From: Escherichia phage DTL
Sequence record: MG050172
Reading direction: 5' to 3' (one strand)
DNA: 45,814 nucleotides
This document shows, piece by piece, positions 586 through 45,234 of the stretch. Numbering within the stretch: position 1 is the stretch's first letter; each line of letters begins with the position of its first letter. Under the pieces are notes generated by a model that worked only from the letters and a program-made list of their open reading frames with translations, was not told the DNA's origin and searched no databases. The position numbers and the translations under genes are program-made.

Positions 586-1722
586 ATGGCAACTGCAAAG
601 ATTACCAACGAAGAACTTCGCGAAGAGCTGAAAAATGGCATGACCAACAAGGCAATCTCAGAGAAGTACGGAATGAACATTCGCAACGTTGAATTGCGTC
701 GTAGTAAATTGGCAAAATCCGGCGAGCTTCATGGAAACCCTGGAATTAAGAAGCTAGTTCCTGACGGCTATTTGGTCAAGGGGACTTCAACAATGATTGA
801 CGCTGAAGGTAACGAAAAGATTATATGGGTAAAGACTTCAATAGACAATGAGCGCCTTGAAGTACTAATGGAGCAAGCTCGAGAGGCATTTTGTTCAGAG
901 TTGCCAAAAGCTATTCCATCTCAATCACCTAATGTTAACTTTGATGATAACACGCTTTCTATGTATCCAGTTTTTGATTTGCACATTGGGGCAATGGCTC
1001 ACAAACATGAGTGCGGCGAAAACTATGATACAGCAACAGCAGAGAAGGTTATGAATGGGTTCTTTGACTACGCTGTAGATAAGGCACCAAACTCTAAGAA
1101 TGCTGTATTGGTATTGGGTGGCGATTTCCTACATTACGATTCTCTGGAGGCTAAAACCCCGGCATCAGGTCACATATTAGATAGTGACAGTCGTTACGCC
1201 AAGATTGTTTATGTCGCAATCCGGTCAGTTCGTCGTGCGATTTCTAGAATGATGGAAAAGCATCAAGTTATTGATATTAAAGTAATAAGTGGGAATCACG
1301 ACGAGGCTGGGATGGTTTGGCTTCGCGCTGCTCTTGCTGCATTTTATGAAGACGAACCGCGAGTAAATGTTGATGTTAGCCCAGCTGCAATGATGATGAC
1401 AAGCTTTGGAACGACGCTTATTGGATACACGCATGGTCACCAAATGCGAAAAGCCGATACCCGACTAACTGTTATGGCAACTGATTTTCGTAAGTTATTT
1501 GGTCAAAGTGAGTATGTTTACACACATAGCGGACACTGGCATTCGCAGAAGATTACAGAAACAAACCTGGGAATTGATGAGGTTCACGGGCAGCTTGGAA
1601 GTCCTGACGCGTACTCCGCAAATGGCGGCTGGCGCTCTCAACGTCAAGCGGCAGTTATTGTCTACCATAAAGAATTCGGTGAAGTTGGTCGATTCATTTG
1701 TCGCCCTAAAATGTTTAGCTAA
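586..1722 (+). CDS. putative metallophosphoesterase with N-terminal HTH-like region
   Basis: 378-aa ORF; calcineurin-like motifs LGGDFLHYD and SGNHDE; RBS AAGGAA upstream; stop TAA abuts ATAGCAC element. Confidence 0.5.
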   Translation: MATAKITNEELREELKNGMTNKAISEKYGMNIRNVELRRSKLAKSGELHGNPGIKKLVPDGYLVKGTSTMIDAEGNEKIIWVKTSIDNERLEVLMEQAREAFCSELPKAIPSQSPNVNFDDNTLSMYPVFDLHIGAMAHKHECGENYDTATAEKVMNGFFDYAVDKAPNSKNAVLVLGGDFLHYDSLEAKTPASGHILDSDSRYAKIVYVAIRSVRRAISRMMEKHQVIDIKVISGNHDEAGMVWLRAALAAFYEDEPRVNVDVSPAAMMMTSFGTTLIGYTHGHQMRKADTRLTVMATDFRKLFGQSEYVYTHSGHWHSQKITETNLGIDEVHGQLGSPDAYSANGGWRSQRQAAVIVYHKEFGEVGRFICRPKMFS

Positions 1723-1793
1723 TAGCACCTTTTGTTAAAACAGTAGCCGCGAAAGCGGCTATTATTGTTTTATAGAAACGACAGGAGATTGAA

Positions 1794-2222
1794 ATGAATT
1801 GGCATGAACATTACGATTACAAAGATGGAAAGCTTTATAGGAAGTACCAAAACCACAATCACCCGGCAGGAAAGGAGTGTGGCTGGATTGATTTAAGGGG
1901 TTACGTTAGGACTAAGCTGTTTTCAAAGATGACTTTTGCCCATCTAGTAATATGGGAAATGCATAACGGAGAGGTTCCCGAGGGCATGGAGATCGACCAC
2001 ATTAATGGAGTTAAGCATGATAACAGGATTGAGAACCTAAGGTGCGTAGATAGGTGGGTAAACTGCAAGAATATGGCGAAGAGAAAAGACAATAAAAGCG
2101 GGCAAACTGGAGTTAGTTACGTTGAGTCAAGAAATGTTTGGGTAGTAAGTATACATGTAAACAAATTCACACATAGTCACACGTGCGATACGAAAGATGA
2201 GGCAATTTCAATTGCAAAATAA
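1794..2222 (+). CDS. HNH homing endonuclease
   Basis: Signature AHLVIWEMHNGEVPEGMEIDHINGVKHDNRIENLR; RBS GGAG upstream. Confidence 0.8.
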   Translation: MNWHEHYDYKDGKLYRKYQNHNHPAGKECGWIDLRGYVRTKLFSKMTFAHLVIWEMHNGEVPEGMEIDHINGVKHDNRIENLRCVDRWVNCKNMAKRKDNKSGQTGVSYVESRNVWVVSIHVNKFTHSHTCDTKDEAISIAK

Positions 2223-2348
2223 ATTTACGCAGAAAACCCAGAATTCACAGAGAGGCACGGTAAATAGCACTTTTTGCCTAACCCACGCCGTAGAAATACG
2301 GCATAATCACCACATCGAAACGAGACAAACCAAGAGAGGAAGCACAAA

Positions 2349-2525
2349 ATGACTAAAATGATTTATTGCACCAAGAACAACTCCAAGACACTGCCATTTA
2401 CAGTTAACCAGCCGTACAATGCAGAGTATCAGGGTGACGGATACTACAAAATTTACGGTGACGATATGACGTGGATTTTAGCGCCGATTGACGGTTCGTT
2501 GGTTGAATTTATTATCGCAGACTAG
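2349..2525 (+). CDS. small hypothetical protein (58 aa)
   Basis: ATG after RBS-like AGAGAGGAAG; preceded by CATCGAAACGAGAC leader motif; followed by terminator. Confidence 0.3.
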   Translation: MTKMIYCTKNNSKTLPFTVNQPYNAEYQGDGYYKIYGDDMTWILAPIDGSLVEFIIAD

Positions 2526-2551
2526 CGCAGAAAAAACATAGCGTTACAAAC

Positions 2552-2578
2552 GGGGAGCCTTTTGGCTCCCTTTTTTTA
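2552..2578 (+). terminator. rho-independent terminator
   Basis: GGGAGCC-TTTT-GGCTCCC hairpin followed by T7 run. Confidence 0.7.
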
Positions 2579-2655
2579 TGCTTCTTTTCCGAGCGGTGCT
2601 AATGTATCATTCTTTTATTAACTTAAACATTGACAAATACATAAAGGTGGATCAC

Positions 2656-2871
2656 ATGAGGGAAGTAATTAACGCCGCTACGGCATCAACTGGCGGTGCT
2701 GCGTTTACTGGAGCTGCAACTGGTCAAATGACTATAGCAATAATCAGCCTTATCGCTCTAATCATTTTTGGAGCTTGGGGGGCTTATTGGAAGTATAAGG
2801 ATAGCCAGGCGATTCGCAGAGCGCTTGAATCTGGGGATTTAAAAACAGCAATCAATATAAGGAGCAAATAA
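2656..2871 (+). CDS. putative holin
   Basis: Small protein with hydrophobic TM segment IAIISLIALIIFGAWGAYW and charged C-terminus; RBS AGGTGG; immediately upstream of endolysin. Confidence 0.55.
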   Translation: MREVINAATASTGGAAFTGAATGQMTIAIISLIALIIFGAWGAYWKYKDSQAIRRALESGDLKTAINIRSK

Positions 2872-3357: not shown

Positions 3358-3722
3358 TAATGTGCGTAGCTTTATCTGGGTGTTCAGCAACATCTGCTCT
3401 GACTGGTTTGATTGGCAGTAAGCCAGAGATTAGCGCTCAAGCTGGTGCAGAGAACAATAAGGTTGGTGTTGGGTTAACGAACAAGGTTGACTCCAGTAAC
3501 TCCAGCGAAGCTACGGTTAAGGATTCCAAGGTTGGGTCACTGGATAGCTCGAGCGGGAAAAAGACTGCTGATAACTCTATTAAGGCCTCAACAATTACCG
3601 CCGAAAAGATTGAGATTACTAATAACGAATCATCAGCGCTTCCGTGGGTTGGAACAGGAGCTATGGGTCTGCTGGTTTTAATTCTCATGGCATTAATCTT
3701 AAGACGTAAAAAAGCCTCCTAA
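3333..3722 (+). CDS. unimolecular spanin (T1 gp11-like): OM lipoprotein signal plus C-terminal TMD
   Basis: Lipobox LSGC near N-terminus, Ser/Thr-rich periplasmic region, C-terminal TM helix GAMGLLVLILMALIL then RRKK; overlaps endolysin 3' end. Confidence 0.7.
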   Translation: MLKWIAALVMCVALSGCSATSALTGLIGSKPEISAQAGAENNKVGVGLTNKVDSSNSSEATVKDSKVGSLDSSSGKKTADNSIKASTITAEKIEITNNESSALPWVGTGAMGLLVLILMALILRRKKAS

Positions 3723-3729: not shown

Positions 3730-3736
3730 TATATTT

Positions 3737-4072: not shown

Positions 4073-4075
4073 TTA

Positions 4076-5659
4076 TCACCCCAGCAGTCGCGGATTAATG
4101 TAAACTTTATCACCAATCAGGCACGTATAGTTCTTCTCATCGAGCATCGGCAGTAAGTGATCTTTAATCTTCGTCATTACTCCAGCCTGAGCCTCGAACG
4201 GCTTAACCTTGCGAGCCGCTTCATACAATGAACGAATGCCAACAACACCCTTACCGTTTTTGCCTTGCTTGATCAGAATGTCAATCAACTTATTCATCTC
4301 GGCATTGTCACCAGCGTGACCTGCGGCATTAGCAGATGAAAGGTAAGTTTTGCTTAGTTCATTAAACATAATTACAGCTTCTTGCATGGTATCCAATTCA
4401 ATTTCCCTGGACTTCTGCGGACTACCACCATTTGGGTTGAACCAGTTACGCACAGTGTGAAGAACCGCCGCAATCCTGATAGCCTGTTTATCGAATTTAC
4501 CCAGGGCGCCGCGCAGCATCGTGTGCGAATATTTTCCGCCGTCAGCAAGGTGCGGCTCCATTTCCTGGCGTGCTTTGTTGAGATATTTCATTGCCGAGTT
4601 GCTAACCGTGAGCTTAACATCTTGTTCGTTCATTATTTCGTGAACCAAGCGGAAATAATCAGCCTTCAGCCCACCATCAATAGGTTCGTAAGTTGAGTCT
4701 CCATTCTCATCAACGAACACGCGCTCGCCAAGAAATGACTTCTCGCGTACAAGCAGAAAACGCTCAGAAACACCGATACCACGCGCACCAGCATTCATGA
4801 TTGCGTTAATCGTCTCATCCTGCGCAATTACAGATATGCAGCCCATAGCAACGAAACTCATATTATTCTCTGAGTTCGCGCGCGCAATAGATACGTTACC
4901 CGCATCCCACGCTTTAAGCACGAGTTCGCTGTTCGTTTTCTTAGAGCCATCACCATAGGTCATGCCTAAAAGTGAGTTAACGCTAGTTGCTTCGTCAGAA
5001 ATTACCGCAAAGTTGCCCTGACGGTTGTTTATTCGCGCAAGACCTTCCGGCGTGGTGTCGGATACGGGGAAAACGATATCGCAAAGTTTCTCGAGCTTTT
5101 CCTCAAGATCCTCCTTCTCCTCAAAAAGAGAGGCCATCTCTGACGGAGATTTTTCCTGCTTAATCTCTTTGGATAATGCAGATAGTTTGGCCATAATCTT
5201 TTTTCGCTCACGTTTTCGCACTTCATTAAGCCGCTCAGTCTCAGCAATCATTGGAGCAATTGAAAGTGAGTTGATTGCTGATTTACCAGTCGATGGCGGC
5301 TGGCTTGTTACAACATAAAGCGAAGTTGGTTGCTGAGTTCCGTGATACTCAACTGTAAATCGTCCTAGCATGGCGGCAGAAATACACCCCAGGAAGTGCA
5401 TGTATGCGGACGACTCCGGAAACTGAACAGAACGAGCGATATTGGATGATAGTTTGCCAACAACATCAATATCATTACCCAATGAGATTACGGGATACTT
5501 GTCATTAGCCGCATCAATCTCGACTGGCGCTTTCCAGAATGATTGAGACTGGCGATATCCATTAGCATTAATAGCGACTCGCAGTGGGGTGAGGTTGTCT
5601 GCTGCAGCAATTGCCATAACCTGTTCAACAGATAGTTTATCTTCGTTGAAATCAAACAT
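4076..5659 (-). CDS. hypothetical protein (527 aa), full-length member of a two-member paralog family
   Basis: Long ORF; N- and C-terminal ~40 and ~80 aa are homologous to the 140-aa product of 8671..9093. Confidence 0.5.
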   Translation of the reverse strand: MFDFNEDKLSVEQVMAIAAADNLTPLRVAINANGYRQSQSFWKAPVEIDAANDKYPVISLGNDIDVVGKLSSNIARSVQFPESSAYMHFLGCISAAMLGRFTVEYHGTQQPTSLYVVTSQPPSTGKSAINSLSIAPMIAETERLNEVRKRERKKIMAKLSALSKEIKQEKSPSEMASLFEEKEDLEEKLEKLCDIVFPVSDTTPEGLARINNRQGNFAVISDEATSVNSLLGMTYGDGSKKTNSELVLKAWDAGNVSIARANSENNMSFVAMGCISVIAQDETINAIMNAGARGIGVSERFLLVREKSFLGERVFVDENGDSTYEPIDGGLKADYFRLVHEIMNEQDVKLTVSNSAMKYLNKARQEMEPHLADGGKYSHTMLRGALGKFDKQAIRIAAVLHTVRNWFNPNGGSPQKSREIELDTMQEAVIMFNELSKTYLSSANAAGHAGDNAEMNKLIDILIKQGKNGKGVVGIRSLYEAARKVKPFEAQAGVMTKIKDHLLPMLDEKNYTCLIGDKVYINPRLLG

Positions 5660-5733
5660 TACTTCTCTCCGTATTGTTTCTGAGCGGCCATTATATCAAC
5701 GACCGCTTATAATTCATTATCAATTTTTGCTAT

Positions 5734-6087
5734 TTACAGGTATTGAGCCTCAAAATAGTACGTGCCACAGAGAGTAAAGAACCCAACACCCTCACTTCGG
5801 TAAAGCTGCCATGGCTGACCATCTTCGTCATAAATGTATCCGGCATTTTGTCCAAGCCCCGCATGAAGTGCCACCTGGTATCTCTTTCCAAGCTTGAATG
5901 ACTTCTTAAGTGATGAGTTGTGGTTAACTCTGGTTACATAAAGAGTCTTGGTCTTAATGTATTTGCCGCGCTCTTCAAGGTTAAACCATTTGCCATCTTT
6001 CTTGATTTGATCCACTCCATCTTTAACGCGAGCCTTGTATAGTACGTTTTCGTTGCTGATCCAGTTTTTAGTAATCGTAGTGGTCAT
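5734..6087 (-). CDS. hypothetical protein
   Basis: 117-aa ORF; preceded on its own strand by the TATATT -10 and CATCGAAACGAAAC leader. Confidence 0.45.
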   Translation of the reverse strand: MTTTITKNWISNENVLYKARVKDGVDQIKKDGKWFNLEERGKYIKTKTLYVTRVNHNSSLKKSFKLGKRYQVALHAGLGQNAGYIYDEDGQPWQLYRSEGVGFFTLCGTYYFEAQYL

Positions 6088-6150
6088 TTTGTTTGCCTTC
6101 GTGTGTTTCGTTTCGATGAGATGAATATACAGGAAAAGCCCCGAATGGCT

Positions 6151-6402
6151 TTAGCAATTAGTGCTATTTATTGCATTGAGTCCAAGTGGTGTTATCACTA
6201 CATTATACCAAGTTCCAATCTCTGGCTTATTTACATTATATGCCATCTCTACATAGCCTAGCCGAAATAGTTTTGGTATACACCTGGATGACTTGCCAGA
6301 ATCTCGAATCCTGCCTCGACTAAAGTCATAACTTATTTGATGAATCTCTCCATTATGAATGCAGTGGAGGGTTTTTATTGCGGATTCAGAAATTTTAATC
6401 AT
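6151..6402 (-). CDS. hypothetical protein
   Basis: 83-aa ORF; its stop lies within a minus-strand copy of the ATAGCAC element. Confidence 0.4.
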   Translation of the reverse strand: MIKISESAIKTLHCIHNGEIHQISYDFSRGRIRDSGKSSRCIPKLFRLGYVEMAYNVNKPEIGTWYNVVITPLGLNAINSTNC

Positions 6403-6566: not shown

Positions 6567-6568
6567 AG

Positions 6569-7329: not shown

Positions 7330-7342
7330 ATTTCAATCCTCA

Positions 7343-7516
7343 AAATGGAATGCAGTGATTACAACCCTCACCACTACAACAGAAATCTTCATCTTCTGAC
7401 TGGAATTGCTTTGCCAGATCAATGTCTAGCTTTCCGCGCACCACAAGGTCTGTGTAATCTTCGTTAAGTCCAATCAGTGCACATTCGTGACGTAACTCAT
7501 CTTTATCAAGCTTCAT
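7343..7516 (-). CDS. small Cys-containing hypothetical protein (57 aa)
   Basis: ORF found by eye with CCSGEGCNHC; first gene downstream of the minus-strand promoter element at 7571..7590. Confidence 0.3.
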
Positions 7517-7739
7517 GTCTTTCTCCTCGCTGTTGATGGGTTAACTATATCCCCACTAACTCATAATGTCTTTAGCAAAAAGTGCCATTCGTTAGATTTA
7601 TGGATTGTTGCAGATATTGCAATGATTCTCATGATTATTGCGTATATAGCAATATTGCTTCAGATGCAATGATTTTTTTGATTGTTGCGAAAAGTGAAAT
7701 GAAGTGGTGAGTGAGTGAATGAAAGAATGATGGACTACC

Positions 7740-8170
7740 ATACAAGTTGATTTTGATTCTGGCTGAGCCATTTTAACGCTTACGCGTAACGCCAGTAGCG
7801 CGATGTAAGCCAACGCCTATCGTTACGCTAGTTACGCGCAGATACGCCATGACTTACACTATAAGTGCTTAATATATATATATATCTTCTTTCTATTATT
7901 ATTATTATTATTAATATTATTGTATGTAAGTCGTGTAACGGGGGTCCCGGCGATATCTATATGTTTTTTCCTATCAGGATGCATTATTTCCATTTTATGT
8001 GAGATTTAGCCATTATGGGGCCACCCAGCCAATTTACCTCGTTACACGAACGACGCGAAACTACATTGAGCTATAGCTGGGCTAGTGTGCCATTTAGCGT
8101 AACGACCCCCGGAAGTTACCAAAAATTACACTTGACTACATGTGTAAGTCGGGATATGATTGATTCAACT
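7740..8170. promoter_or_regulatory. divergent control region A: iteron-like GTTACGC repeats, (AT)n and (ATT)n tracts
   Basis: ~650 bp between divergent gene blocks; TCGTTACGC/TAGTTACGC direct repeats, palindrome TTACGCGTAA, (AT)7 at ~7873 and (ATT)6 at ~7894; homologous to 34400..34860. Confidence 0.5.
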
Positions 8171-18784: not shown

Positions 18785-18876
18785 CACGTCGTGGGCGACT
18801 AACTTATCTGTTGATTTGCGGTCGCCCTACTGTATAATGAATCCGTAGACACATAACTGAAAAGGAACAATAAAGA

Positions 18877-22500: not shown

Positions 22501-22582
22501 ATTGCATAGCACTTTTTGCTAAAGCGCTCGTTCAACTTTGCTGTATAGTTACTTCATCGAAACGAAATGAAGGAATTAAGAA

Positions 22583-22831
22583 ATGAATAACGTTAAAAAC
22601 ATTATCAAGCTCGCTGCGGTTCTTGTTGCTTTTTATGCAGTAGTTCAGATTGTTAACCCAACTGGCGAGGCTGATGCCAATAGCAAGGCAAACAGATATA
22701 CTGTTGAATTTTCTAAGGCTGAGCTAGCATGTCAGGAACTTGTAGGTGGCAAAGTTGACCAAATCATGAAATACGGCAAAGAGGTTTGTAAGGACTCGGC
22801 TGCTAAGATTGCAAAAGAAAACACTAAGTAA
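22583..22831 (+). CDS. small secreted/membrane protein (moron-like insert in tail cluster)
   Basis: N-terminal hydrophobic segment; own promoter element and CATCGAAACGAAA leader upstream. Confidence 0.45.
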   Translation: MNNVKNIIKLAAVLVAFYAVVQIVNPTGEADANSKANRYTVEFSKAELACQELVGGKVDQIMKYGKEVCKDSAAKIAKENTK

Positions 22832-26924: not shown

Positions 26925-27813
26925 TTGGAGAAAATCATGTTAAGTACAAAGTTTGAAAATCAGTTGCAAAGCCTTTTTCCTGGCGAGATTGTGACATTAA
27001 TCCAGGTTGACGGAACCTCTTTTGGCAGTCTCGTTTATTCGTTCCACAATGAGAACATTTCATACACACCTGAAGAGATCATGCTAGCCCAAATGAATGG
27101 CGAGCCACTACCAGAGAAAACCATCACCTTTCGTGGTGAAGAGTACGGGCCTCGCCCATTCGGTATCTCGGGCATTAATATGACCTCTGACGGAAAAGCC
27201 AACAAGGTTACACTAACAGTATCAAACGTAGACCAGCGCATTAGCGCATTGATTAGAACATACAACGGACTTGTTAAAGCTAAGGTTACCATATGGATTA
27301 CCACGAGAGATAACATCAATGAAGACGGAAGCATTGCTGATGGTGACTATCGCAGATTTGTTTACTTCATTGAGCGACCGAAGCAGGTTGATTACAAAAC
27401 TGCGTCATTTGAGCTTAGTAGCCCGATGGATATGGATGGCATTTACATCCCTGCCAGACTTGTTTGACTATCGCAGATTTGTTTACTTCATTGAGCGACC
27501 GAAGCAGGTTGATTACAAAACTGCGTCATTTGAGCTTAGTAGCCCGATGGATATGGATGGCATTTACATCCCTGCCAGACTTGTTCAATCGGTTTGCTAT
27601 TGGGCGTCCAGGGGCTGGTATCGTAGCGGTAATGGTTGCGGCTATGCTGGTAATAGATACTTCAACAAGGATGATGAGCCTGTGTCAGACCCCTCATTAG
27701 ACTTCTGCGCAGGAACTGTTAACAGTTGCAAAATTAGGTTTGGAGAGAATAATCAGCTGGACTTTGGTGGTTGCGCGGCAGCAAGTCTTCAGGCTAAAGC
27801 GAATCAATCATAG
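26925..27813 (+). pseudogene. minor tail protein (lambda L-like) frameshifted by a 121-bp tandem duplication
   Basis: Track ORFs 26925..27467 and 27271..27813 both encode DYRRFVYFIERPKQVDYKTASFELSSPMDMDGIYIPARLV in different frames. Confidence 0.6.
27344..27585 (+). repeat. perfect tandem direct duplication, 2 x 121 bp
   Basis: 27344..27464 and 27465..27585 identical base-for-base on hand comparison. Confidence 0.85.
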
Positions 27814-27866
27814 CACTTTTTGTTAAGAGGACGGCCCAGATTTGGGCTATCCTCTAATCTCTTAAA

Positions 27867-28364
27867 TTGGAGACAAAAATGAACTGGAATGAAATTTTCG
27901 AATACAGAGATGGCAAGATCTATTGGAAAGTTAGCCCTGGCAGGAGGGCTAAGGTTGGTTCGGAAGCTGGATCAAATCAAATAAAAGGGTATAGATTTGT
28001 GAAATTTCACGGAGTTTTATATATGACACACATGGTTATTTGGGAGATGCATAACTGTGAAATACCGCATGGAATGGAGGTTGACCATTTAAATCACATT
28101 AGGGACGATAACAGGATAGAGAATTTAAGAGTTGTTACAAAGTCAATTAATCAGAGGAATGCATCTAAAAGAATTGATAATAAAAGCGGTTTTACAGGCG
28201 TTTCTTGGTATCCCAAATATTCAAAGTGGAATGCTTACGCGACAGTAAATTCCAAGAGGTTTAATCTTGGTTACTTTGAATCAAAGCAAGATGCCTGTGT
28301 GGCTGTTAAAAAATTTAGGTCCATAAATTATTTTCATAAAAACCATGGAGTTGATTTATGTTAA
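27867..28364 (+). CDS. HNH homing endonuclease
   Basis: Motif HMVIWEMHNCEIPHGMEVDHLNHIRDDNRIENLR; inserted between L-like and K-like tail genes. Confidence 0.8.
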   Translation: METKMNWNEIFEYRDGKIYWKVSPGRRAKVGSEAGSNQIKGYRFVKFHGVLYMTHMVIWEMHNCEIPHGMEVDHLNHIRDDNRIENLRVVTKSINQRNASKRIDNKSGFTGVSWYPKYSKWNAYATVNSKRFNLGYFESKQDACVAVKKFRSINYFHKNHGVDLC

Positions 28365-33136: not shown

Positions 33137-33142
33137 AATAAA

Positions 33143-33162
33143 AGCCCCTTTCGGGGCTTTAT
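33143..33162. terminator. bidirectional terminator between convergent genes
   Basis: A-run, AGCCCC-TTTC-GGGGCT, T-rich tail. Confidence 0.65.
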
Positions 33163-33167
33163 CTTTA

Positions 33168-34133
33168 TCAGTACATGTTTGGTATGTACGGCAACTGCAT
33201 TGATATGTTTGTATTGAATGGAAATTTAGCGCCAGTCTTTGTTGAGTAGTTTCCGATCACACTGCAAAACTCAGACCTGACAGAACCATTAGACATTACA
33301 ACCCCTTTATATCTAAGGTTGTTATAGCCACCAGTTACGCGAGTATAAGCTCCGGTCCTAAGTATGGGGAAGTATCCGTCACCTATTGACTGAAATGAGT
33401 TTGATATCTGAATGAATCCACCAAGCACAAAAGGCCTCTTGACAGTAGAGAATACAACCTGGCCGGCCGGGTTTGCTATTGTTATCCCCGGCCCGCCAAC
33501 CGGCGCAGTGTTGTTGAATATAACCAGGTCAACGACAACTGATGCCGACACGTTATCTATGCCGCCGTATGTGTTATTCCTGCAAAGAATCCTAGACCCA
33601 TCAAACTCGAGCGTAACGTTTGGATTACTCCACCTACCAAACGGGATTCCAGTTATTGGTAGTGTATAACTCCCATTCACCGTAACTCTACCAACAAACT
33701 GAGCTGTCATTAGCCTTGAGTTTGTCGTTATAGAGATAAAGTCAGTTGAGTTGGCAACAAGTATGCCTTGACCCGTGGACGCACCTGTTATTTCAAAGCA
33801 GTTTCCTGAGAAGTTTATCAGCCTTCCTTTAGCGCCGTTAAAGTTGCTAATATTTATTCTTCCTTGCGTATTTGATACCCGCTGGAATCCATTCATATAG
33901 TAAACCTCAGGTATAACATTGAAGTCTATAACATCAACAGCCTTTATTGGCAATGCGAATGCGGTTGATCCATCTGTTTGGCTAAGTGAAAATGTAAGAC
34001 CCCCAGACTGAGATGCAAAACTTTTAGTTGGAATAGATCCGGTCACATTAGGTGCTCTTAAGCCGGACGTTATCTGCATTGCTGGACTTCCATCATTCAG
34101 GTCTATTAGAATACCCTGTGGCATTATTTCCAC
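33168..34133 (-). CDS. hypothetical protein, possible receptor-binding protein
   Basis: 321 aa, Gly/Asn/Thr-rich; co-transcribed downstream of the Cor-like gene. Confidence 0.4.
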
Positions 34134-34366
34134 TCCTTAGAACCATGGTCTTTAATGGAGCCACCGTAACCGCCACCAGTGGCCTTAATTCCATCGTAGC
34201 GCACATCAACTTCGCCAGCTGGAACAACCACACCATTTTTCCATTTAGCCACGCATACGCCGCTTGCTTGCGTTGCACACCAACCATCAGGACGTGGACC
34301 TGATGAACAACCAACTGTCATTATTACTGCTGCTGAGATGATTACTGATTTGATGAAGTTAGTCAC
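34124..34366 (-). CDS. putative Cor-like superinfection-exclusion lipoprotein
   Basis: 80 aa, lipobox TVGCSS, GTG start, placed just beyond the J-like gene. Confidence 0.45.
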
Positions 34367-34399: not shown

Positions 34400-34860
34400 T
34401 GGGATAACTATACAACCGTCAGTGAGGAATGTCTTTAGCTATTCGTGCTATTGTATACACGTAACCGATGTAACTGCGTGTATACCAGTGCCATCCGCGA
34501 GAAATCGTATACGCCTAGTTACGCCTAGTTACGCATTGGTTACACTAAAATATCTATATATATCAACCTTTTACTATTATTATTATTATTATATATATTA
34601 CTGTGTATATCATGTAACTACCTCTATAGGGTGTTGCGGTTATAAATTTCTAATATGTACATTTATACAGTATCTATCAACCAGCACACCAACGCACCCT
34701 CCGCGAGAAGCGGTATACACGATATACACGCTGGTTACGCTGAGCTATGGCTGGCTTGATATGCCAAAAAACGTAACTAGTGCCAACGCCTACACGTAAT
34801 TACAAAGATTCACGCGTAAGTTTGAATCAACGATTGGAGAAACCAATTGGACCCAAGCCA
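34400..34860. promoter_or_regulatory. divergent control region B: iteron-like TAGTTACGC repeats, (TA)n and (ATT)n tracts
   Basis: CCTAGTTACG x2 at ~34513..34537, (ATT)n at ~34574..34592, GAGCTATGGCTGGCT block; homologous to 7740..8170. Confidence 0.5.
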
Positions 34861-34913
34861 TGAACTCTCATATAGTTAACCCATCGAAAGCGAACAACCA
34901 GAGAGATAAAGAA

Positions 34914-35583: not shown

Positions 35584-36550
35584 AATGTTTAAGGTTTTTA
35601 CGCGAGAAGAGTTAAGCAACGAAGAGTATCACTCAGAGTCTGACCACATCTCCGGTAGCTCACTTGTCGAGATTATCCAGGGCTCGCCAGCTAAGTGGAA
35701 ATTCAAGCGGCGTAATAGCGACAGCAAGGCGCTAAAGTTTGGAACCCTAAGCCACACGATGATTCTGGAGCAGGATGTATTTGATAAAGAATACCTTCGC
35801 GAAACCGATCTTGATGCCATCGAAGGCTTAATTACAAGCCAGACCGGATTATCAGCAGCACTTAAAAAAGTTGGCGTAGCTGGCACGTCTGGGAAGGGGT
35901 ATAGCGAGCTCGTAGAGATGATGTATCGTTCAGGTGAGTATTGGGATGTTAAATGGCTAATTGAGCAGCAGGATAGTGCTCAGGCTATTGCGGAGGGCAA
36001 GGAGCTAGTTAGCGCAGCAGATTACGACAAGGTTGTCGCGATGCGCGAGGTTCTTTGTAATATTCCTGCGTATGATGCAATTGTGAACAGTGAGACTGCG
36101 CAGAAGGAGTTATCAATCTTCGGTGAGATTCTAGGTGTTGGCGTTAAGATTCGAATTGACCACGTAGATGTTATTGATGGGGTTGTATGCATTACCGACC
36201 TGAAGACGACAGCCAGCGCATCACCTCAGGAGTTTGGTAGACTTGCATTCAAGCATGGTTATCTTGCAAAAATGGCGCTACAGCACGATGTTTTTGTTAG
36301 GGCTTTTAATGAAAAAAGAAAAACAAAAGTAAGGCTACTTGCGATCGAGAAAGAGGAGCCTTACCTACCAATGCTTTACAGCATTACAGAAGAGCAACTG
36401 AAGGTTGGCCGCAGGATGTATTTAGAGGCGCTTGCCACTTACAAAAAGTGCAAAGAGAATGATGAGTGGCCAGGTTATGCAATGGGCGCAACAGAGATTG
36501 ATTTAGATGTTCCTGAGTGGGATATGAGGAAGTATAGAGATGAAATATAG
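35573..36550 (+). CDS. PD-(D/E)XK family exonuclease (RecE/YqaJ-like recombination nuclease)
   Basis: Motif ITDLKT (D-x-K core); sits upstream of the ERF and SSB genes. Confidence 0.55.
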   Translation: MENKMFKVFTREELSNEEYHSESDHISGSSLVEIIQGSPAKWKFKRRNSDSKALKFGTLSHTMILEQDVFDKEYLRETDLDAIEGLITSQTGLSAALKKVGVAGTSGKGYSELVEMMYRSGEYWDVKWLIEQQDSAQAIAEGKELVSAADYDKVVAMREVLCNIPAYDAIVNSETAQKELSIFGEILGVGVKIRIDHVDVIDGVVCITDLKTTASASPQEFGRLAFKHGYLAKMALQHDVFVRAFNEKRKTKVRLLAIEKEEPYLPMLYSITEEQLKVGRRMYLEALATYKKCKENDEWPGYAMGATEIDLDVPEWDMRKYRDEI

Positions 36551-36619
36551 CACTAATTGCTAAAGACAAAATTAACGAGTGGGGTATGATTGCCACATCA
36601 ACAACGAACGAGGTTAAAG

Positions 36620-37741: not shown

Positions 37742-37767
37742 ATAAAGCCCCTTTCGGGGCTTTTTTT
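37742..37767. terminator. bidirectional terminator
   Basis: A-run, AGCCCC-TTTC-GGGGCT, T7 run. Confidence 0.7.
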
Positions 37768-39956: not shown

Positions 39957-40026
39957 TGTGTAAAGTCTCCATTTGTAAAATAGCACTAATTGCTAAGTTG
40001 GATTGTAGCATCTTTCAGGTATAAAA

Positions 40027-40043: not shown

Positions 40044-40967
40044 TTAGCTATTCAATAAATCACTCGCCTTATATATCTTCTTCCTGATGCCGCTCTTGAA
40101 TGAGTATTCATCATTTGGTATTACCACCTCAACGTTCCTGTCATCCGCAACGCAAAGTAATTCCATATCAAGATTGCACGCCACTCTCAACTTGTAGTTT
40201 TTGAGCGCATAAGCAACCATCTCCATATTGTAGCTGGAGTGGCAAACAAGCGCGCAGCGGTTCCCAGTAGCAAGATGAACGCGAACACCATCAATCCAAT
40301 TATCGACAAGATAAGCGTACTCATCACTTTTAAAGGTACCAATAACAGCAACTGACTGACGGGTATAATCTTTTGCAGCATAACTAACAACTCCCTCTTC
40401 ATTTATAAACATTACATTGCACATCTCATCTGACAACCCATCACTATAAGCCATAAAGCACGGTATTGCGTGTATTAGTTCTCCTGATTTTGTCCTGCCA
40501 ACATCAAAACCAAACTCGCTATAGATTCCCTCGTATATACTGAGCGGAGTTGATTCTACTCTTTCCGTCCTTTCCATTATCTCTAAGCACCTTTTGTGGT
40601 CAATCTGAGCGCCCATTTTGTATAGTTTGGTTCTTGATGCTTGCTTGTTTGCTTTAACTATAACCTCAATTGGTGTTAAGTTCAGCCAGTCACCAAGCAA
40701 ATTTACTGAATCGGCGAAGGACGATCCAGTGCACTTCATGACCCATCCTATACCGGAGTCACTTCCGCATTTCGAACAAACTGCCGCGCCATTTCCTTTT
40801 TCACTGCCTATTTCGTCGGTAAATCTGAATCTGTCAGTGCCAAAGCAGTATGGGCATGGTCCGTGCTTCTTACTTAGGTGTCTATCATTCCAACCAAGTT
40901 CCTTTGCATAAAATGATTTCCACAATCCGGCCATCTTAGGTATAACTTCATTCTTATCGTAATTCAT
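40044..40967 (-). CDS. DNA primase (zinc-ribbon plus TOPRIM-like)
   Basis: Zn-binding CPYCFG...CSKCG at N-terminus; acidic TOPRIM-like C-terminal half. Confidence 0.65.
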   Translation of the reverse strand: MNYDKNEVIPKMAGLWKSFYAKELGWNDRHLSKKHGPCPYCFGTDRFRFTDEIGSEKGNGAAVCSKCGSDSGIGWVMKCTGSSFADSVNLLGDWLNLTPIEVIVKANKQASRTKLYKMGAQIDHKRCLEIMERTERVESTPLSIYEGIYSEFGFDVGRTKSGELIHAIPCFMAYSDGLSDEMCNVMFINEEGVVSYAAKDYTRQSVAVIGTFKSDEYAYLVDNWIDGVRVHLATGNRCALVCHSSYNMEMVAYALKNYKLRVACNLDMELLCVADDRNVEVVIPNDEYSFKSGIRKKIYKASDLLNS

Positions 40968-41443
40968 TTGCTTAACCCGTGATTTTCGTGAAAGTTGTAT
41001 TTTCTCTCTGCTTCAATTCTTACTTTATACGCCTGCTCTGGAGTATCGAAGTTCCCAAGGTGTAGCTGCTTGCCGTCAACCTTGATGTGAGCCTTAAATT
41101 TTCCGTGATTTAGCTTTGCCACTCCACAATAACCAGTTGTTGATAAAACGCTAATCTTGCAATTTCTTGAGTTACCTTGATTTGTTGTTACTCTTAGGTT
41201 TTCTATTCTGTTATCTAATTTGTTATGGTTTATATGATCAATGTAGTCGCCATTTTGAAGTTCTCCATTAAACATCTCCCACACAACTCTATGTACATAA
41301 GTCCTAAAGCCATTAACAGACACTTTGTAATAGCCAGATGTAGATAGTGAGTTGCACTCATCGCCAACCTTAACACGTCTTGCAGTGCTAATCTTCCAAT
41401 GCAATTTGCCATCTACATAGTAAAAATAATCATGCCAGTTCAT
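40964..41443 (-). CDS. HNH homing endonuclease
   Basis: Motif HRVVWEMFNGELQNGDYIDHINHNKLDNRIENLR. Confidence 0.8.
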   Translation of the reverse strand: MNWHDYFYYVDGKLHWKISTARRVKVGDECNSLSTSGYYKVSVNGFRTYVHRVVWEMFNGELQNGDYIDHINHNKLDNRIENLRVTTNQGNSRNCKISVLSTTGYCGVAKLNHGKFKAHIKVDGKQLHLGNFDTPEQAYKVRIEAERKYNFHENHGLSK

Positions 41444-41495
41444 TTTCTTCTCTCCAATAAAAAAAGGATGTACCGATTATGGCACATCCAATTAT

Positions 41496-41969
41496 TTACT
41501 CTTTAGCTTTTCGTGCGGCTTCGTTAGCTGCCTTAATCTTTCGCCATGATCGACACTCTGGCTTGGTGGCCAATTCAGCCTCGGTAACCACGCGAAGCAT
41601 GTGACGCTTCTTGCATCTAAGTGTCAGCGGCTTGCCGTTACCGTCGAATTGCAGGTCTGGGCGGCAGAATGTGGCTCGAAAGCCTTCTCCATTTCGCTTA
41701 TAGTAGTTGTGCGACAGCTGGGCACCGCGTGCAGAAATCATTCCACGCTTAAACCACTCCTCTACAGCCTGTGGAGTTACCTTTAACTGCTTTGCGATAT
41801 TCGCCTTTGTGCCGAAGAAATCAAGAACTATCTCGAGTCTCGCTCGTAGTCCGGATCTTACTTCATCTTTTAAAACGTAGTAACCTGAAGGTCGCTTCCG
41901 TTTCTTCTTGTCTTCAGTGCGGACAGTTCCGTTATTCCCGTTAATGGTTCGCTTGTCAACTGCATTCAT
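41496..41969 (-). CDS. putative HTH DNA-binding protein / transcriptional regulator
   Basis: Basic N-terminus and HTH-like ANIAKQLKVTPQAVEEWFKRG. Confidence 0.4.
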   Translation of the reverse strand: MNAVDKRTINGNNGTVRTEDKKKRKRPSGYYVLKDEVRSGLRARLEIVLDFFGTKANIAKQLKVTPQAVEEWFKRGMISARGAQLSHNYYKRNGEGFRATFCRPDLQFDGNGKPLTLRCKKRHMLRVVTEAELATKPECRSWRKIKAANEAARKAKE

Positions 41970-42070
41970 TTAATCACCTCAATAGCATTTTTTGTTAAAA
42001 GTCATTCTGATTTGATGGTAGTATTGTACTCAATTAAACGCTACAAGACAATTTTTATAGGAATTTAGAT

Positions 42071-44065
42071 ATGTTGCCTATCGAGAGGCTGGTTGCCAAC
42101 TTTGATAAAGAAAGAATTAAACAGATTCAGAAAGATTACCAGTTTGGCGAGATAACCCCTTACGAGTTCCAGTGCGTTACATTTGATGCTATCGGAAAGG
42201 CAATTGGGAAGTACGAAGCACCATTTATCGCTGACCTTTCCGTGTCTGCTGGTAAGACAATCATTCTTGCCATGATTGGTAAGCGCATGGAGCAGCTTGG
42301 GCTTCCTTATATGGTTCTATCTCGCCAGTCAGAGATAATCAGTCAGAACTCAGAAGAACTTCGTAATTTCGGCATCCGTAATAGCGTCTATTGCGCCGGC
42401 CTTAACGTTAAATCGGTTTACTACCCAATCATAGTTGCCAGTGAAGGTACGGCAGCCAACGGCTTGTTTAAGGGTCTTGGTGACTACGTTCCGGCCGTTA
42501 TCGCTATAGATGAGTGTCACATGGTCGATCATATGGATATTGTAGAGGCCGAAGAGAACGAAGAAACATTTGAGCAAATGAGCACAAAGAAAGGGGAGAT
42601 GGTTTTTAAGGATGGCGTAAATACCGGACTGCTTGGCACGGGTCGCGCGCAGTACACGCTAATCATTACTGAAATGAAGCGGCGTTGTCGTGAGAAATAC
42701 GGGCGTGAGCTTCGTATATTCGGTCTAACTGGCAGTCCGTATCGCAATAACGACCATATCGTCGTTAGTAATCCTAATATCCGTGGATTCTGGCGTAAAA
42801 CAGTAATTCAGGTCCCAACAAATTACCTGGTTGATTTGGGTTTTGTTGTTCCAACTGTTTACGGTGAGGTTGGTGATTTGGGATATGACCTTAGCGAATT
42901 CTCTCCTGATGGTAGTGATGGTGTGAAAGACTTTAGCAAGAAAGAAATGGAAGCGATGCAGGAAAAAATTCATCAAAACCAGTCCATGACTCAAAAGATT
43001 ATGCAGTTCGCAGCCAAGTTTATGGAAACTCGTAACGCAGCACTAGTAACTTGCTCAGGCAAGCGGCATTGCGAGGAAGCAGCAGCGGCGCTTCCTAAGG
43101 GTGTAACCTGGGCTATAGTAACTGACTCTACTGGTGAGAAAAAGCGTCGTGAGATTCTTTCTGACGCAGCTGAAGGTAAGTATAAATTCATCTTTCAGAT
43201 TGGTTGCCTCACAACCGGCGTGAACGTTCCGCCATGGGACACGTCAATAATTCTTCGAAAGGTTGGTAGCATCACGTTACTGATTCAGCTTTTGGGGCGA
43301 GGTATGCGAATTCTTAAGAAGAAGCATAAGGAAATGGGAATGGTTAAGGATGATCACGTGGTGCTGGACTTCGCTGGTACTCTTGATGAAATGGCGGAAT
43401 TGTACTTTGACCCAATCATAGAGGAAGTGCAGGACCAGAAATTTAAGTCTTCACGCAAAGGCGGCGATGAGCCAAGAATATGTCCGGCCTGTAGTTACGA
43501 GAACTCTCTTTTTGCTCGTCGTTGCAATAACGTAATTGACGGGAAGCGTTGTGAGCATTTTTTTACATTTCGCTTATGTGAAGATATAGAGGACCCGCAG
43601 ACAAAAGTTACTATTAAGAAAGGTTGTGGTGAAAAGAATGATATCGCCGCTAAAAACTGCCGCTGCTGCGGAGAAATGCTTATTGACCCTAACGCAAAAT
43701 TGTCTGGAAAGATGTATCGACAAGGTGATTGGTTGAGAGTTTACGGATTCAGCATTGGATTAACTAAAAACCAAACTGGAATAGTTGCTCGCTATGAAAT
43801 CATGTCGCATAGTGGGGATAGGTTTGTTGCTTACGAAACTTTCTTCCCAGAGAGTGACCATCGAGTTTGCTCTGTTAAGTGGAAGGCATTTTGCCAGGCG
43901 CACATCCAGAACAAAACGGAGGCATTTCGCATAGGAAGACTTCGCAATGCAAAAATGATTATGACTAACGCAAGTCAATTTCGTGAGCCAATGCGAGTGA
44001 CTCATAGAAAGAACCAGAAAGGTCAGGATATTATCGCCAATAAATCTTTTACTATGGAGGATTGA
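42071..44065 (+). CDS. SF2 DNA helicase (DExH-type) with C-terminal Cys-rich region
   Basis: Walker A SVSAGKT, Walker B/DECH IAIDECHMV, multiple CxxC pairs near C-terminus. Confidence 0.75.
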   Translation: MLPIERLVANFDKERIKQIQKDYQFGEITPYEFQCVTFDAIGKAIGKYEAPFIADLSVSAGKTIILAMIGKRMEQLGLPYMVLSRQSEIISQNSEELRNFGIRNSVYCAGLNVKSVYYPIIVASEGTAANGLFKGLGDYVPAVIAIDECHMVDHMDIVEAEENEETFEQMSTKKGEMVFKDGVNTGLLGTGRAQYTLIITEMKRRCREKYGRELRIFGLTGSPYRNNDHIVVSNPNIRGFWRKTVIQVPTNYLVDLGFVVPTVYGEVGDLGYDLSEFSPDGSDGVKDFSKKEMEAMQEKIHQNQSMTQKIMQFAAKFMETRNAALVTCSGKRHCEEAAAALPKGVTWAIVTDSTGEKKRREILSDAAEGKYKFIFQIGCLTTGVNVPPWDTSIILRKVGSITLLIQLLGRGMRILKKKHKEMGMVKDDHVVLDFAGTLDEMAELYFDPIIEEVQDQKFKSSRKGGDEPRICPACSYENSLFARRCNNVIDGKRCEHFFTFRLCEDIEDPQTKVTIKKGCGEKNDIAAKNCRCCGEMLIDPNAKLSGKMYRQGDWLRVYGFSIGLTKNQTGIVARYEIMSHSGDRFVAYETFFPESDHRVCSVKWKAFCQAHIQNKTEAFRIGRLRNAKMIMTNASQFREPMRVTHRKNQKGQDIIANKSFTMED

Positions 44066-44066
44066 T

Positions 44067-44540
44067 ATGAATTGGAATGACATTTTCGAGTATAGTGATG
44101 GGCAGCTATTCTGGAATGAGAAGGGAAAAAGCCGCAAGATGGGAGTGGCGGTTGGTGCCATTCGTGACAATGGTTATATCCAGGTAGGGTACAATCGCAA
44201 GCTGTACCTTGCTCATCGCATCGTGTGGGAAAAGCATAATGGGCCGATACCTGAGGGCATGATGGTAGATCACATAAACCATATTAGAGATGATAATAGG
44301 ATAGAAAACCTTAGATTGGTAAATTGCAAGGACAATACAAGAAACACCAGCATAAGGTCTGACAACAATACTGGTCACCACGGTGTTTGCTGGTGTAATC
44401 GCAGGCTTAAGTGGTACGCAAGGATAAATATTGACGGTAAAAATAAGTTTTTAGGTTACTTCATAACAAAAGCTATGGCCATAGAGGCAAGAAAGCAAGC
44501 CGAGAAGTTATATGGATTCCACGAAAACCATGGAGTTTAG
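44067..44540 (+). CDS. HNH homing endonuclease
   Basis: Motif HRIVWEKHNGPIPEGMMVDHINHIRDDNRIENLR. Confidence 0.8.
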   Translation: MNWNDIFEYSDGQLFWNEKGKSRKMGVAVGAIRDNGYIQVGYNRKLYLAHRIVWEKHNGPIPEGMMVDHINHIRDDNRIENLRLVNCKDNTRNTSIRSDNNTGHHGVCWCNRRLKWYARINIDGKNKFLGYFITKAMAIEARKQAEKLYGFHENHGV

Positions 44541-44961
44541 AGTGAAAATTACAGACAAGGTTGATTATATTGAGTTTTACCCAGGTCCAGTTAAGTCTTG
44601 CCCTAAAGAGGATGACGAACAAATCTTTTGCTCTGATTGGGTTAAGTATAACTATCCAGAGATGGTATTTTTCCACTGCGTGAATGAGGGTAAGAAAACC
44701 ATTGGACAAGCAAGAAAGGACCAGGCAAAAGGTTTGCTTAAGGGTGTCTCGGACTGCTTATTCCTGATACCTGAATCACTTAGAGGAAAGCACCCTTTCG
44801 GGGCAATAGAGCTAAAGAGAGCAGGAAAAACTCAGGCCAGTCCAGTCAGTGACGAGCAGAGGTCCTTCCTGAAAAGCGTAAGAGAATCAGGCGGTTTCGC
44901 GGCCGTAGCTTACGGACGTGAAGGATTTCTAGCGGCATTTAGAGAGATGATTTCAAAATAG
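44530..44961 (+). CDS. VRR-NUC domain nuclease
   Basis: Pattern DCLFLIPE...IELKRAGKTQASPVSDEQ; start ambiguous (44512 or 44530). Confidence 0.5.
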   Translation: MEFRVKITDKVDYIEFYPGPVKSCPKEDDEQIFCSDWVKYNYPEMVFFHCVNEGKKTIGQARKDQAKGLLKGVSDCLFLIPESLRGKHPFGAIELKRAGKTQASPVSDEQRSFLKSVRESGGFAAVAYGREGFLAAFREMISK

Positions 44962-45039
44962 CACGAATTGCTAAAGACGTTTCGGTGAGTTGGTGTATTA
45001 TCTATTCATCGAAACGAAACGCACAAAGAGAGAAATAAA

Positions 45040-45234
45040 ATGGCTACTATCTATACTGGCAAAATGTACGAATCACGCAAGACTGGTTATGAGTATGAAT
45101 TAGTAATCACCGCTGATGGTTATGTTCTTGACGATGGTGAAGGTTATTCTTTCGAAGTTACCCCGACTTACAAAGATGATTTAGAGACTGTTAAAAACGC
45201 ATATGGCGAAAAATTTGATGAGGTATCAGAATGA
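45040..45234 (+). CDS. hypothetical protein
   Basis: 64-aa ORF with promoter element and CATCGAAACGAAAC leader upstream. Confidence 0.4.
   Translation: MATIYTGKMYESRKTGYEYELVITADGYVLDDGEGYSFEVTPTYKDDLETVKNAYGEKFDEVSE

Follow-up and report, generated by a model that had tools for sequence, protein, structure and literature searches.

The window analysed here is the complete 45,814-bp genome of Escherichia phage DTL (sequence record MG050172; IMG/VR contig IMGVR_UViG_2974667180_000001), a T1-like phage of the family Drexlerviridae, and the element under study is a box, ATAGCAC-N3-TTGYTAAA, which recurs in it in 15 strong and two degenerate copies. To judge by a match at every specified position, this box is a marbox, and the spacing and profile of the copies indicate that each is a promoter in which a sigma70 -10 hexamer stands at a fixed distance from the box, with a predicted start site. 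We consider it likely that the copies represent class II promoters of the mar/sox/rob type, each of them read by host activators, and much of the early gene expression of T1-like phages probably passes through the host proteins MarA, SoxS and Rob. Binding of these proteins to the phage boxes, and activation there, are what we infer from the sequence comparisons described below.

The box and its relation to the marbox

The nearest annotated relatives of the window phage belong to the Braunvirinae, e.g., vB_EcoS_CEB_EC3a (EC3a) and Rtp, with approximately 86–88% identity over the structural genes. The comparison set (n = 6) consisted of the window and five reference genomes from four Drexlerviridae lineages, namely EC3a, T1, TLS, Rtp and Klebsiella phage KP36, from which 108 box copies were pooled, and a wider sample comprised 817 distinct copies from about 200 T1-like loci. 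A preliminary description of the window had counted about 15 repeated copies, a number far above chance: ATAGCACYTTTTGYTAAA with up to three mismatches gives 14 matches vs. 0.31 expected, and none of 100 shuffled sequences reaches 14. The fifteenth strong copy, at 34451(-), came from a matrix scan of the window, and the degenerate copies lie at 5733(-) and 41519(-). The plus-strand positions given in that description (the starts of the plus-strand boxes in Table 1) are all correct, as are 7571-7588 and 34434-34451 on the minus strand, whereas 6159..6177 was about 10 nt off, the true position being 6150-6167. The pattern as it was written, ATAGCAC-N5-TTG, has no match in the window; the real gap is N3. 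The comparison with related T1-like genomes that had been proposed found the box in all five references, with 17–23 copies each (matrix scan).

In the profile of the 108 copies, G3, C4 and A5 of the box are invariant (G3 at 100%), and G3, C4, C6 and G12 are conserved at 91–100%. The inverted-repeat core noticed earlier, TAGCA-N5-TG(C/T)TA, is present, but its symmetry is limited to 5 + 5 bp and the invariant positions that flank it are asymmetric. The positions that break the dyad (A0, C6, T10, A16 and A17) are conserved at 91–99%, whereas the right arm is less conserved than the left, the nominally symmetric C13 reaching only 63% vs. 100% for G3. In distant phages the palindromic T11 is replaced by A, but GCAC and GCTAAA are kept. 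Sixteen of the 17 window copies are oriented toward the adjoining downstream gene, and this fixed orientation, together with the asymmetry of the box, fits a protein that reads it as a monomer. The reading frame of the upstream gene terminates at the TAG of A-TAG-CAC in 40 of 93 copies, at a TAA immediately 5' of the box in 18 and at the TAA within GC-TAA-A in 10. Therefore, the end of one gene and the promoter of the next often overlap, and this may be a further reason why ATA is conserved at the 5' end of the box.

The working definition of the marbox used by the Grainger laboratory is 5'-GCAHWWWWTGYYAAA-3', which MarA binds as a monomer to give asymmetric complexes of defined orientation (PMC6900184). 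A scan of the window with GCAHWWWWTGYYAAA returned 15 sites with at most one mismatch vs. 1.45 expected, six of them perfect, and all 15 bear the repeat core: 14 are copies of the box listed in Table 1, and the other is an orphan at 452-466(-) without a hexamer. Among the 817 copies of the wider sample, 51% match GCAHWWWWTGYYAAA perfectly and 88% within one mismatch. [quoted passage not shown] Its consensus is GCACTAATTGCTAAA, to which the window copies at 6150-6164(-) and 36550-36564(+) are identical, and its top 11 matches in the window are all repeats, scoring 15.3–18.5 bits, where the median for the host sites themselves is 11.4 bits and the highest score among them 18.2 bits. Martin et al. 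in 1999 reportedly gave a 20-bp marbox consensus, AYnGCACnnWnnRYYAAAYn, and the phage box fits this consensus at positions 1–18, a fit that would account for the strictly asymmetric form of the box and for the Y at its position 14.

The distance from the box to the hexamer is as regular as the box itself. Among the 15 strong window copies, the interval between the 18-mer and the best -10-like hexamer is 20 nt in 11, 21 nt in two and 19 nt in one. Over the six genomes, the best sigma70 -10 hexamer lies exactly 20 nt past the 18-mer in 81 of the 108 copies and at 19–21 nt in 92, every other offset in the spacing histogram being represented by at most four copies, in agreement with the fixed distance of exactly 20 nt that had been proposed from the window for nearly every copy. 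The hexamer profile (T.70 A.84 T.77 A.65 A.50 T.85) is preceded by G at -14 in 75% of the copies, the mark of an extended -10, and followed by a C-rich discriminator and by C(-1)A(+1) exactly 7 nt past the hexamer. An A/C-rich leader (CAYCGAAACGA) of 19–40 nt then leads to a Shine-Dalgarno sequence and the start codon. The spacer is indeed GC-rich (G+C content of 0.53 vs. 0.44 for the window). Nothing that resembles a -35 hexamer is seen in the 108-copy profile at 16–18 bp from the -10; AAAACC occupies that place, consistent with the earlier view that these promoters have no usable -35. Relative to the predicted start, the box covers roughly -50 to -31, GCAC taking up -47 to -44 and TGYTAAA -39 to -33, and its centre falls at about -40.5, which bears out the proposed class II activator position near -41/-42.

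In class II promoters of the mar/sox/rob type, a forward box lies over the -35 with its centre near -41, and there is no recognizable -35 (PMC12052159; PMC10268841). The micF promoter of E. coli K-12 consists of GCACTGAATGTCAAA, 20 nt and TAGAAT, with the micF start 8 nt past the hexamer, and thus has the same 20-nt gap between box and hexamer as the phage element. The cryo-electron microscopy structure of micF with Rob and RNA polymerase shows contacts of Rob to G-47 and A-45 of GCAC and a second (B) site overlapping the -35, from which sigma70 region 4 is held away by Rob (PMC9178005); the phage GCAC lies at -47 to -44 from the predicted start. At fumC, the gap that follows the box is ambiguous, at about 19 nt, and our matrix detected no good forward box in the upstream region of inaA, and micF is therefore the sole geometric standard.

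Readers of the box

The phage boxes probably work in the same way as the box of micF. A monomer of a host AraC/XylS-family activator would place its two helix-turn-helix motifs into the major grooves of GCAC and YYAAA, and, once bound, would replace the contact between sigma70 region 4 and a -35 and recruit the sigma70 holoenzyme (E.sigma70) via region 4 and the C-terminal domain of the alpha subunit, a mode of recruitment that has been observed for Rob on micF (PMC9178005). The likely activators would be Rob, constitutively present in abundance, and, when the cell is under stress, MarA, SoxS or RamA. No AraC/XylS-type protein was found to be encoded in the six genomes: tblastn with MarA, SoxS and the N-terminal domain of Rob gave a best E-value of 0.4, and a MarA/SoxS/Rob profile run against all six-frame open reading frames gave a best E-value of 0.1. 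Since the phages appear to encode no such activator, they would borrow the host's own. MarA, SoxS and RamA are stress-induced. Rob is expressed constitutively at a high level and is activated by ligands such as bile salts (PMC9178005).

Several points weigh against a reading of the boxes by host activators. Beyond sequence and geometry, we infer everything, i.e., binding, start sites and activation. Uninduced Rob is largely sequestered and MarA and SoxS are scarce in unstressed cells, and T1-like phages thrive in plain broth. Classical T1-resistant mutants map to receptor or uptake genes and are not known to map to rob, marA or soxS, although redundancy among MarA, SoxS and Rob could hide a requirement in such screens. 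The extended -10 that is often present could make the promoters active with no activator at all. In addition, the query sequences for MarA, SoxS and Rob were entered by hand, and a very divergent or non-AraC phage protein may read the same box. Finally, some boxes are antisense or lack a -10 (39980 in the window; 18850-, 15086- and 120- in T1), and simple activation does not explain them. The 39980 box ends in CTAAG, and its position is kept in Rtp (33762), EC3a (32078, with CTAAA) and T1 (34902).

The preliminary description had proposed a dedicated dimeric regulator for the palindrome and had named the helix-turn-helix protein encoded at 41496..41969 as an example of a phage protein to test on it. 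We now think it improbable that a dimer of this protein binds TAGCA-N5-TGCTA at -42 as a class II activator. The protein (phrog_2856, T1 gp23 family) has its helix-turn-helix at residues 48–72 and is Cro-like, not MarA-like; it scores 26.9 bits against Pfam P22_Cro, under the cut-off of 30.2, and its AlphaFold model (predicted local distance difference test, pLDDT, of 70) has its best fold matches in the Cro proteins of Xfaso 1, N15 and P22. Every genome examined keeps a Cro-like protein of this kind at the corresponding locus, the half-sites of the palindrome are 10 bp apart with their centre at -42, and the geometry would suit autoregulation, as the gene has its own canonical promoter and a box in its 5' untranslated region, the 41982-41999 box falling, on the other strand, between the -10 of this promoter (42051-42023) and the ribosome-binding site. 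However, the conserved positions of the box are asymmetric, T11 changes to A in distant phages, and the full marbox match together with the micF spacing would have to be coincidence. The recognition helices also vary strongly, whereas the box does not change. The locus search with the regulator covered relatives of at least 50% identity only, and distant ones were reached by profile search and contig look-ups; the profile search returned 20 representatives below 1e-10 among 1.8 billion proteins. The distant homologues have strongly different recognition helices (TPQAVEEWFKRG, KRHRVARWVEKG, NGLRMVLWKQKG and THGCIEQCVKSG), and the contigs of the most distant ones keep the box with its core GCAC-N5-GCTAAA. 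Such constancy of the box in the face of phage proteins that have drifted to low identity suggests that its reader is a conserved protein of the host, and the Cro-like regulator was rejected as the reader on the variable recognition helix and the marbox identity. A dimeric site of the CRP/FNR/cI type was likewise rejected, as the conserved positions lack two-fold symmetry and T11 varies in distant phages.

As to the Cro-like family itself, its most conserved part is not the helix-turn-helix but an N-terminal basic segment, DKR-x-(I/L)-NGNNGT-x-RG-x-D, which is near-invariant even in the most distant members and disordered in the model.

A phage protein of unrelated fold might instead read the marbox, replacing or competing with the host activators, and to this we give the same small likelihood as to the Cro-like dimer. 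The genomes contain many small early open reading frames without an assigned function, and the homology searches rested on only three queries, but no candidate was found, and such a protein would be less parsimonious than the use of host proteins that are abundant and for which both the optimal site and the spacing recur here without change.

It is less probable still that no activator is involved and RNA polymerase alone reads the box, be it as an UP element for the C-terminal domain of the alpha subunit or in the form of TTGCTA with a 22-bp spacer serving as a displaced -35. UP-like enhancers are among the suggestions in the account of the repeat in the TLS paper discussed below (PMC11447400). 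TTGCTA resembles TTGACA, and the extended -10 is frequent, but this explanation leaves ATAGCAC unexplained. A 22-bp spacer also puts the -35 out of reach of sigma70 region 4. The invariant G3, C4 and A5 are unlike the A/T tract of an UP element (-59 to -38), which is excluded by the conservation of G3, C4, C6 and G12.

Other known sites were compared with the box and rejected. The sigma54 promoter (-24/-12; TGGCAC-N5-TTGCW) differs from TAGCAC-N3-TTGC in that the gap here is 2 nt short and AG stands for GG, and it would leave the -10 hexamer unexplained. The Lrp site (yAGhAwATTwTdCTr) fits the arms of the repeats, but at two to three mismatches only, a level at which the window has 87 sites vs. 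102.6 expected. The T4 MotA box, which is centred at -30, and the lambda CII site, TTGC-N6-TTGC around -35, differ from the present box in position and period.

Spacer hairpins and neighbouring features

The spacer hairpins that had been noticed by eye are real. The spacer, the hexamer and the next 14 nt (40 nt in all) fold with a mean of -9.9 kcal/mol vs. -5.4 for random 40-mers (mean z of -2.4), and the stem encloses the hexamer in 59 copies and lies within the spacer in 37. When a spacer is swapped onto the downstream half of another copy, the energy rises from -11.4 to -8.1 kcal/mol, and the complementarity is thus specific to each copy and goes beyond base composition. Folding of the sense strand is more favourable than that of the antisense strand by 1.8 kcal/mol, compared with 0.55 for random plus-strand 40-mers. 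As the register of the hairpin differs among copies, a pairing test in one fixed register over all copies is uninformative, but a sub-family of 30 distinct sequences from T1, TLS, KP36 and IMG/VR loci shares the loop ATTTG(A/T)-TAnAGT and can be aligned on it. In this sub-family, the six-pair inner helix is 97.8% paired, with compensatory changes at all six pairs and one pair that occurs as six pair types, including G.U and U.G. Its covariation score is 0.57 vs. 0.18 when shuffled (0 of 500 reach it) and at most 0.21 with the partners slid, and G.U pairs are found on the sense strand only.

The promoter's own transcript is predicted to start no earlier than the 3' arm, and the hairpin would therefore form only in read-through RNA from upstream or in single-stranded sense DNA. 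Copies with an upstream gene on the same strand fold better than the others (-10.4 vs. -7.1 kcal/mol, p = 0.017), and the 22506 copy, which has a terminator of its own just upstream, has no internal hairpin. The earlier proposal of a terminator-plus-promoter cassette holds in part, three window copies being terminator-like, the one at 22506 by virtue of the terminator that precedes it. A hairpin followed by a T-rich stretch is found at 1742-1763, at 41466-41489 (T7 tail, CATAAT in the loop) and at the orthologous sites in T1 (35995-) and TLS (35240-), and terminators are annotated at the orthologous sites of T1 and KP36. Few hairpins have a T tail, however: among 233 stable ones, 24 (about 10%) have at least five T in the next 8 nt.

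These results also bear on whether the element is mainly an RNA-level terminator, processing or stability cassette with secondary promoter features, which we regard as very unlikely. The hairpins are significant, covary with G.U pairs and include some true terminators, but the T-rich tail is confined to about 10–20% of the stable ones, the conservation of the box, G-14, TAnnnT and the CA start is the signature of a DNA promoter, and the hairpin register varies while the distance from box to hexamer does not. In a marbox promoter, the hairpin would end, attenuate or stabilise the read-through RNA from upstream, so insulating each cassette, and insulation or 3'-end formation for the upstream cassette is most likely its role, although this is the least certain part of our account. 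We know of no described class of promoter-embedded hairpin that encloses the -10 in a 12-nt loop. Taken together, we tentatively hypothesize, with somewhat less than even confidence, that the Drexlerviridae have wired most early and middle transcription to the multidrug-resistance and stress activators of the host, with titration of these activators and hairpins that insulate against read-through.

Promoters of the ordinary -35/-10 kind are no commoner in the window than by chance (32 vs. 35.5 and 35 vs. 32.8 expected). Four candidates, which are consensus matches only, are well placed, i.e., at 8132-8160, 18811-18838, 34848-34876 and 42051-42023(-) (Table 1), and they have the -10 and leader design of the repeat promoters without the box. 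This suggests at least two classes of promoters, one, the minority, with a -35 and putatively independent of an activator and the other with a marbox.

Several further features of the window were noted. Identical bidirectional terminator hairpins, AAAGCCCCTTTCGGGGCTTT, lie at 33141-33160 and 37744-37763, where plus- and minus-strand gene blocks converge, and the late genes have few boxes and many terminators. The products of the three HNH genes (1794..2222, 27867..28364 and 40964..41443(-)) start with MNW (MNWHEHYDY, MNWNEIFEY and MNWHDYFY), and each gene has its own box promoter and a spacer hairpin or terminator, as do rtp20 and rtp40 in Rtp; these units of HNH gene and box promoter look like self-contained mobile cassettes. 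Two viral contigs of about 40 kb without tblastx similarity to the window (L041 and L042) have one perfect box each, ATAGCACTTTTTGCTAAA, at 4473(-) and 975(-), respectively, with a common upstream flank (caagaggtga) and no good -10, so that other phages or prophages may have consensus marboxes as well. The gene at 586..1722(+) encodes a T1 gp16-like "DNA repair exonuclease" (phrog_704, with a weak Metallophos match), whose N-terminal segment of about 50 residues is helix-turn-helix-like (weak HTH_24); the KP36 record notes Sigma70_r4_2 for its homologue. The sole Rfam match in the window is a tRNA-Arg (anticodon tct) at 12077-12154(+), just 5' of the small terminase gene.

Table 1. Predicted promoters, boxes, terminators and a hairpin example in the window.
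Feature	Coordinates	Strand	Location	Box or sequence	Spacer and hexamer	Remarks
Orphan box-like site	452-469	-	inside a plus-strand open reading frame	AATCAGCACTAATTGCTAAT		no -10 at the right distance
Composite promoter	1722..1772	+	5' of HNH endonuclease gene 1794..2222	ATAGCACCTTTTGTTAAAAC (1722-1741)	20 nt; TATTAT 1760-1765	predicted +1 at ~1772; spacer hairpin GCCGCgaaaGCGGC; hairpin and T-rich tail 1742-1763 terminator-like
Composite promoter	2264..2314	+	5' of 2349..2525	ATAGCACTTTTTGCCTAACC	CATAAT 2302-2307	CA start; leader CATCGAAACGA
Degenerate copy	5683..5733	-	5' of helicase gene 4076..5659	ATAGCAAAAATTGATAATGA	20 nt; TATAAT 5690-5695	hexamer within GCGGTC/GGCCGC arms
Composite promoter	6117..6167	-	5' of 5734..6087	core GCACTAATTGCTAAA	TATATT 6124-6129	core equals host ChIP-seq consensus
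Composite promoter	7537..7588	-	first of minus-strand early cluster (7340..7516)	ATGGCACTTTTTGCTAAAGA	21 nt; TATAGT 7544-7549	
Candidate -35/-10 promoter	8132-8160	+	first plus-strand early cluster	TTGACT-17-TATGAT		
Composite promoter	9192..9242	+		ATAGCACTTTTTGTTAAACC	TATAGT 9230-9235	TGa extended -10; hexamer in 12-nt loop of AAGGCC/GGCCTT stem
Hexamer-enclosing stem (example)	9212-9241	+		AAGGCC-ATTTGA-TATAGT-GGCCTT		12-nt loop
Composite promoter	9907..9957	+		ATAGCAAGTTTTGTTAAAAG	CATAAT 9945-9950	hexamer within GGGGG/CCCC arms; long leader
Composite promoter	10723..10773	+	5' of 10796..11026	ATAGCACGAATTGCTAAACC	TGt TATAGT 10761-10766	spacer hairpin CCCTCTCCGGAGGG
Composite promoter	11173..11223	+	5' of 11247..11486	ATAGCACGAATTGCTAAACG	TATAAT 11211-11216	
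Candidate -35/-10 promoter	18811-18838	+	5' of capsid gene	TTGATT-16-TATAAT		
Terminator			directly 5' of the 22506 copy	ccctcttcggagggtttttt		
Composite promoter	22506..22556	+	tail gene region, 5' of 22583..22831	ATAGCACTTTTTGCTAAAGC	TATAGT 22544-22549	perfect match to the published marbox
Composite promoter	27810..27860	+	inserted HNH endonuclease gene 27867..28364	ATAGCACTTTTTGTTAAGAG	weak TATCCT 27848-27853	spacer hairpin GGCCCAgatttGGGC
Composite promoter	34400..34451	-	5' of 34124..34366	ATAGCACGAATAGCTAAAGA	21 nt; TGt TATAGT 34407-34412	leader CATCGAAACGAAAC
Candidate -35/-10 promoter	34848-34876	+		TTGGAC-18-TATAGT		followed by taacccatcgaaagcgaac
Composite promoter	36547..36597	+	5' of Erf-like gene	core GCACTAATTGCTAAA	TATGAT 36585-36590	core equals host-site consensus
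Orphan box	39980..39999	+	antisense between primase and tail-fibre genes, just past the primase terminator			best nearby hexamer at most 2.1 bits around 20-nt spacing
Terminator	41466-41489					followed by T7; CATAAT of the 41519(-) copy in its loop
Degenerate copy	41469..41519	-	3' end of regulator gene, 5' of HNH gene 40964..41443	GCCGCACGAAAAGCTAAA	20 nt; CATAAT 41476-41481	
Composite promoter	41982..42031	+	helicase gene 42071..44065	ATAGCATTTTTTGTTAAAAG	19 nt; TAGTAT 42019-42024	
Candidate -35/-10 promoter	42051-42023	-	the Cro-like regulator's own	TTGTCT-17-TACAAT		
Composite promoter	44958..45008	+	5' of 45040..45234	ATAGCACGAATTGCTAAAGA	TATTAT 44996-45001	long hexamer-enclosing stem, -15.3 kcal/mol

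Relation to known systems

A re-annotation of TLS in 2024 describes a 21-nt direct repeat, aaATAGCACnnnTTGnTAAAA, with 18 intergenic copies that run along transcription about 76 nt 5' of start codons, and reports it also in T1, Rtp and Rogue1; in the account of the repeat considered here, a stoperator, an enhancer site and an UP element are the suggested functions, and the repeat is listed as an open question of T1-like phages (PMC11447400). The window element is the same element, with subgroups TTT, GAA and AAA/TAA. Neither the fixed -10 spacing nor the identity with the marbox is mentioned in that account (PMC11447400), and both are established here at the level of sequence. The other T1-like genome papers that were checked add nothing further on the repeat, and no paper linking the marbox, MarA, SoxS or Rob to T1-like phages was found in the searchable literature.

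The suggestion of a stoperator was made by the TLS authors, in the same account, by analogy with mycobacteriophage L5 (PMC11447400). Of all the explanations weighed, we find it the hardest to credit that the boxes are repressor sites of this kind or roadblocks: the sites are asymmetric and oriented with transcription, as those of L5 would be, and a few orphan or antisense copies lack a -10, but the distance to the -10 is fixed in 75–85% of the copies and there is no -35, an architecture of promoters rather than of scattered intragenic sites, and in this virulent phage no repressor candidate tracks the box. An L5-type stoperator was rejected on the same grounds.

The class II marbox turns the question stated for the T1-like repeat into a concrete, testable hypothesis. 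If it is true, it would explain why ordinary sigma70 promoters are scarce in T1-like genomes, and it would be a clear case of a lytic phage that borrows a host stress regulon. Phage productivity would then be tied to clinical multidrug-resistance regulators (MarA, SoxS and Rob in E. coli; RamA in Klebsiella), which would matter for phage therapy and for TolC-dependent phages like TLS, where the receptor, TolC, itself belongs to the mar regulon. Phage expression would be strongest in bile-exposed gut cells and in multidrug-resistant mutants with up-regulated mar, sox or ram, and 15–23 optimal marboxes per genome, multiplied by replication, could titrate MarA, SoxS and Rob off the efflux and envelope genes of the host. 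The covarying hairpins with G.U pairs around the -10 would be a new promoter-embedded insulator that acts on read-through RNA only, and the copies would provide synthetic biology with a compact set of optimal marbox promoters.

Among known systems, intrinsic terminators laid over promoters share with the element a G+C-rich hairpin by a T-rich stretch at 1742-1763 and 41466-41489 and at T1 35995- and TLS 35240-, whereas most spacer hairpins have no U tract and enclose the hexamer in a 12-nt loop. The likeness to host class II promoters (micF, fumC and lpxC P2) goes further, since the element has a forward, asymmetric box of 15–20 bp, GCAHWWWWTGYYAAA, over the -35, a sigma70 -10 without a -35 and, as in micF, a gap of 20 nt. 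Unlike those promoters, the phage copies occur in a virulent genome at 15–23 per 45–50 kb, score at or above the best host sites, which are mostly degenerate, and often have an extended -10, a hexamer-enclosing hairpin and an upstream stop codon in the box, and their response to MarA, SoxS and Rob is a predicted one. In T4 middle promoters (MotA/AsiA), Mu Pm (Mor) and lambda PRE (CII), a promoter class is likewise defined by a conserved, fixed-distance box together with a good -10 in the absence of a -35. MotA/AsiA, Mor and CII are encoded by the phage, whereas here no such activator was found and the box is the host's own.

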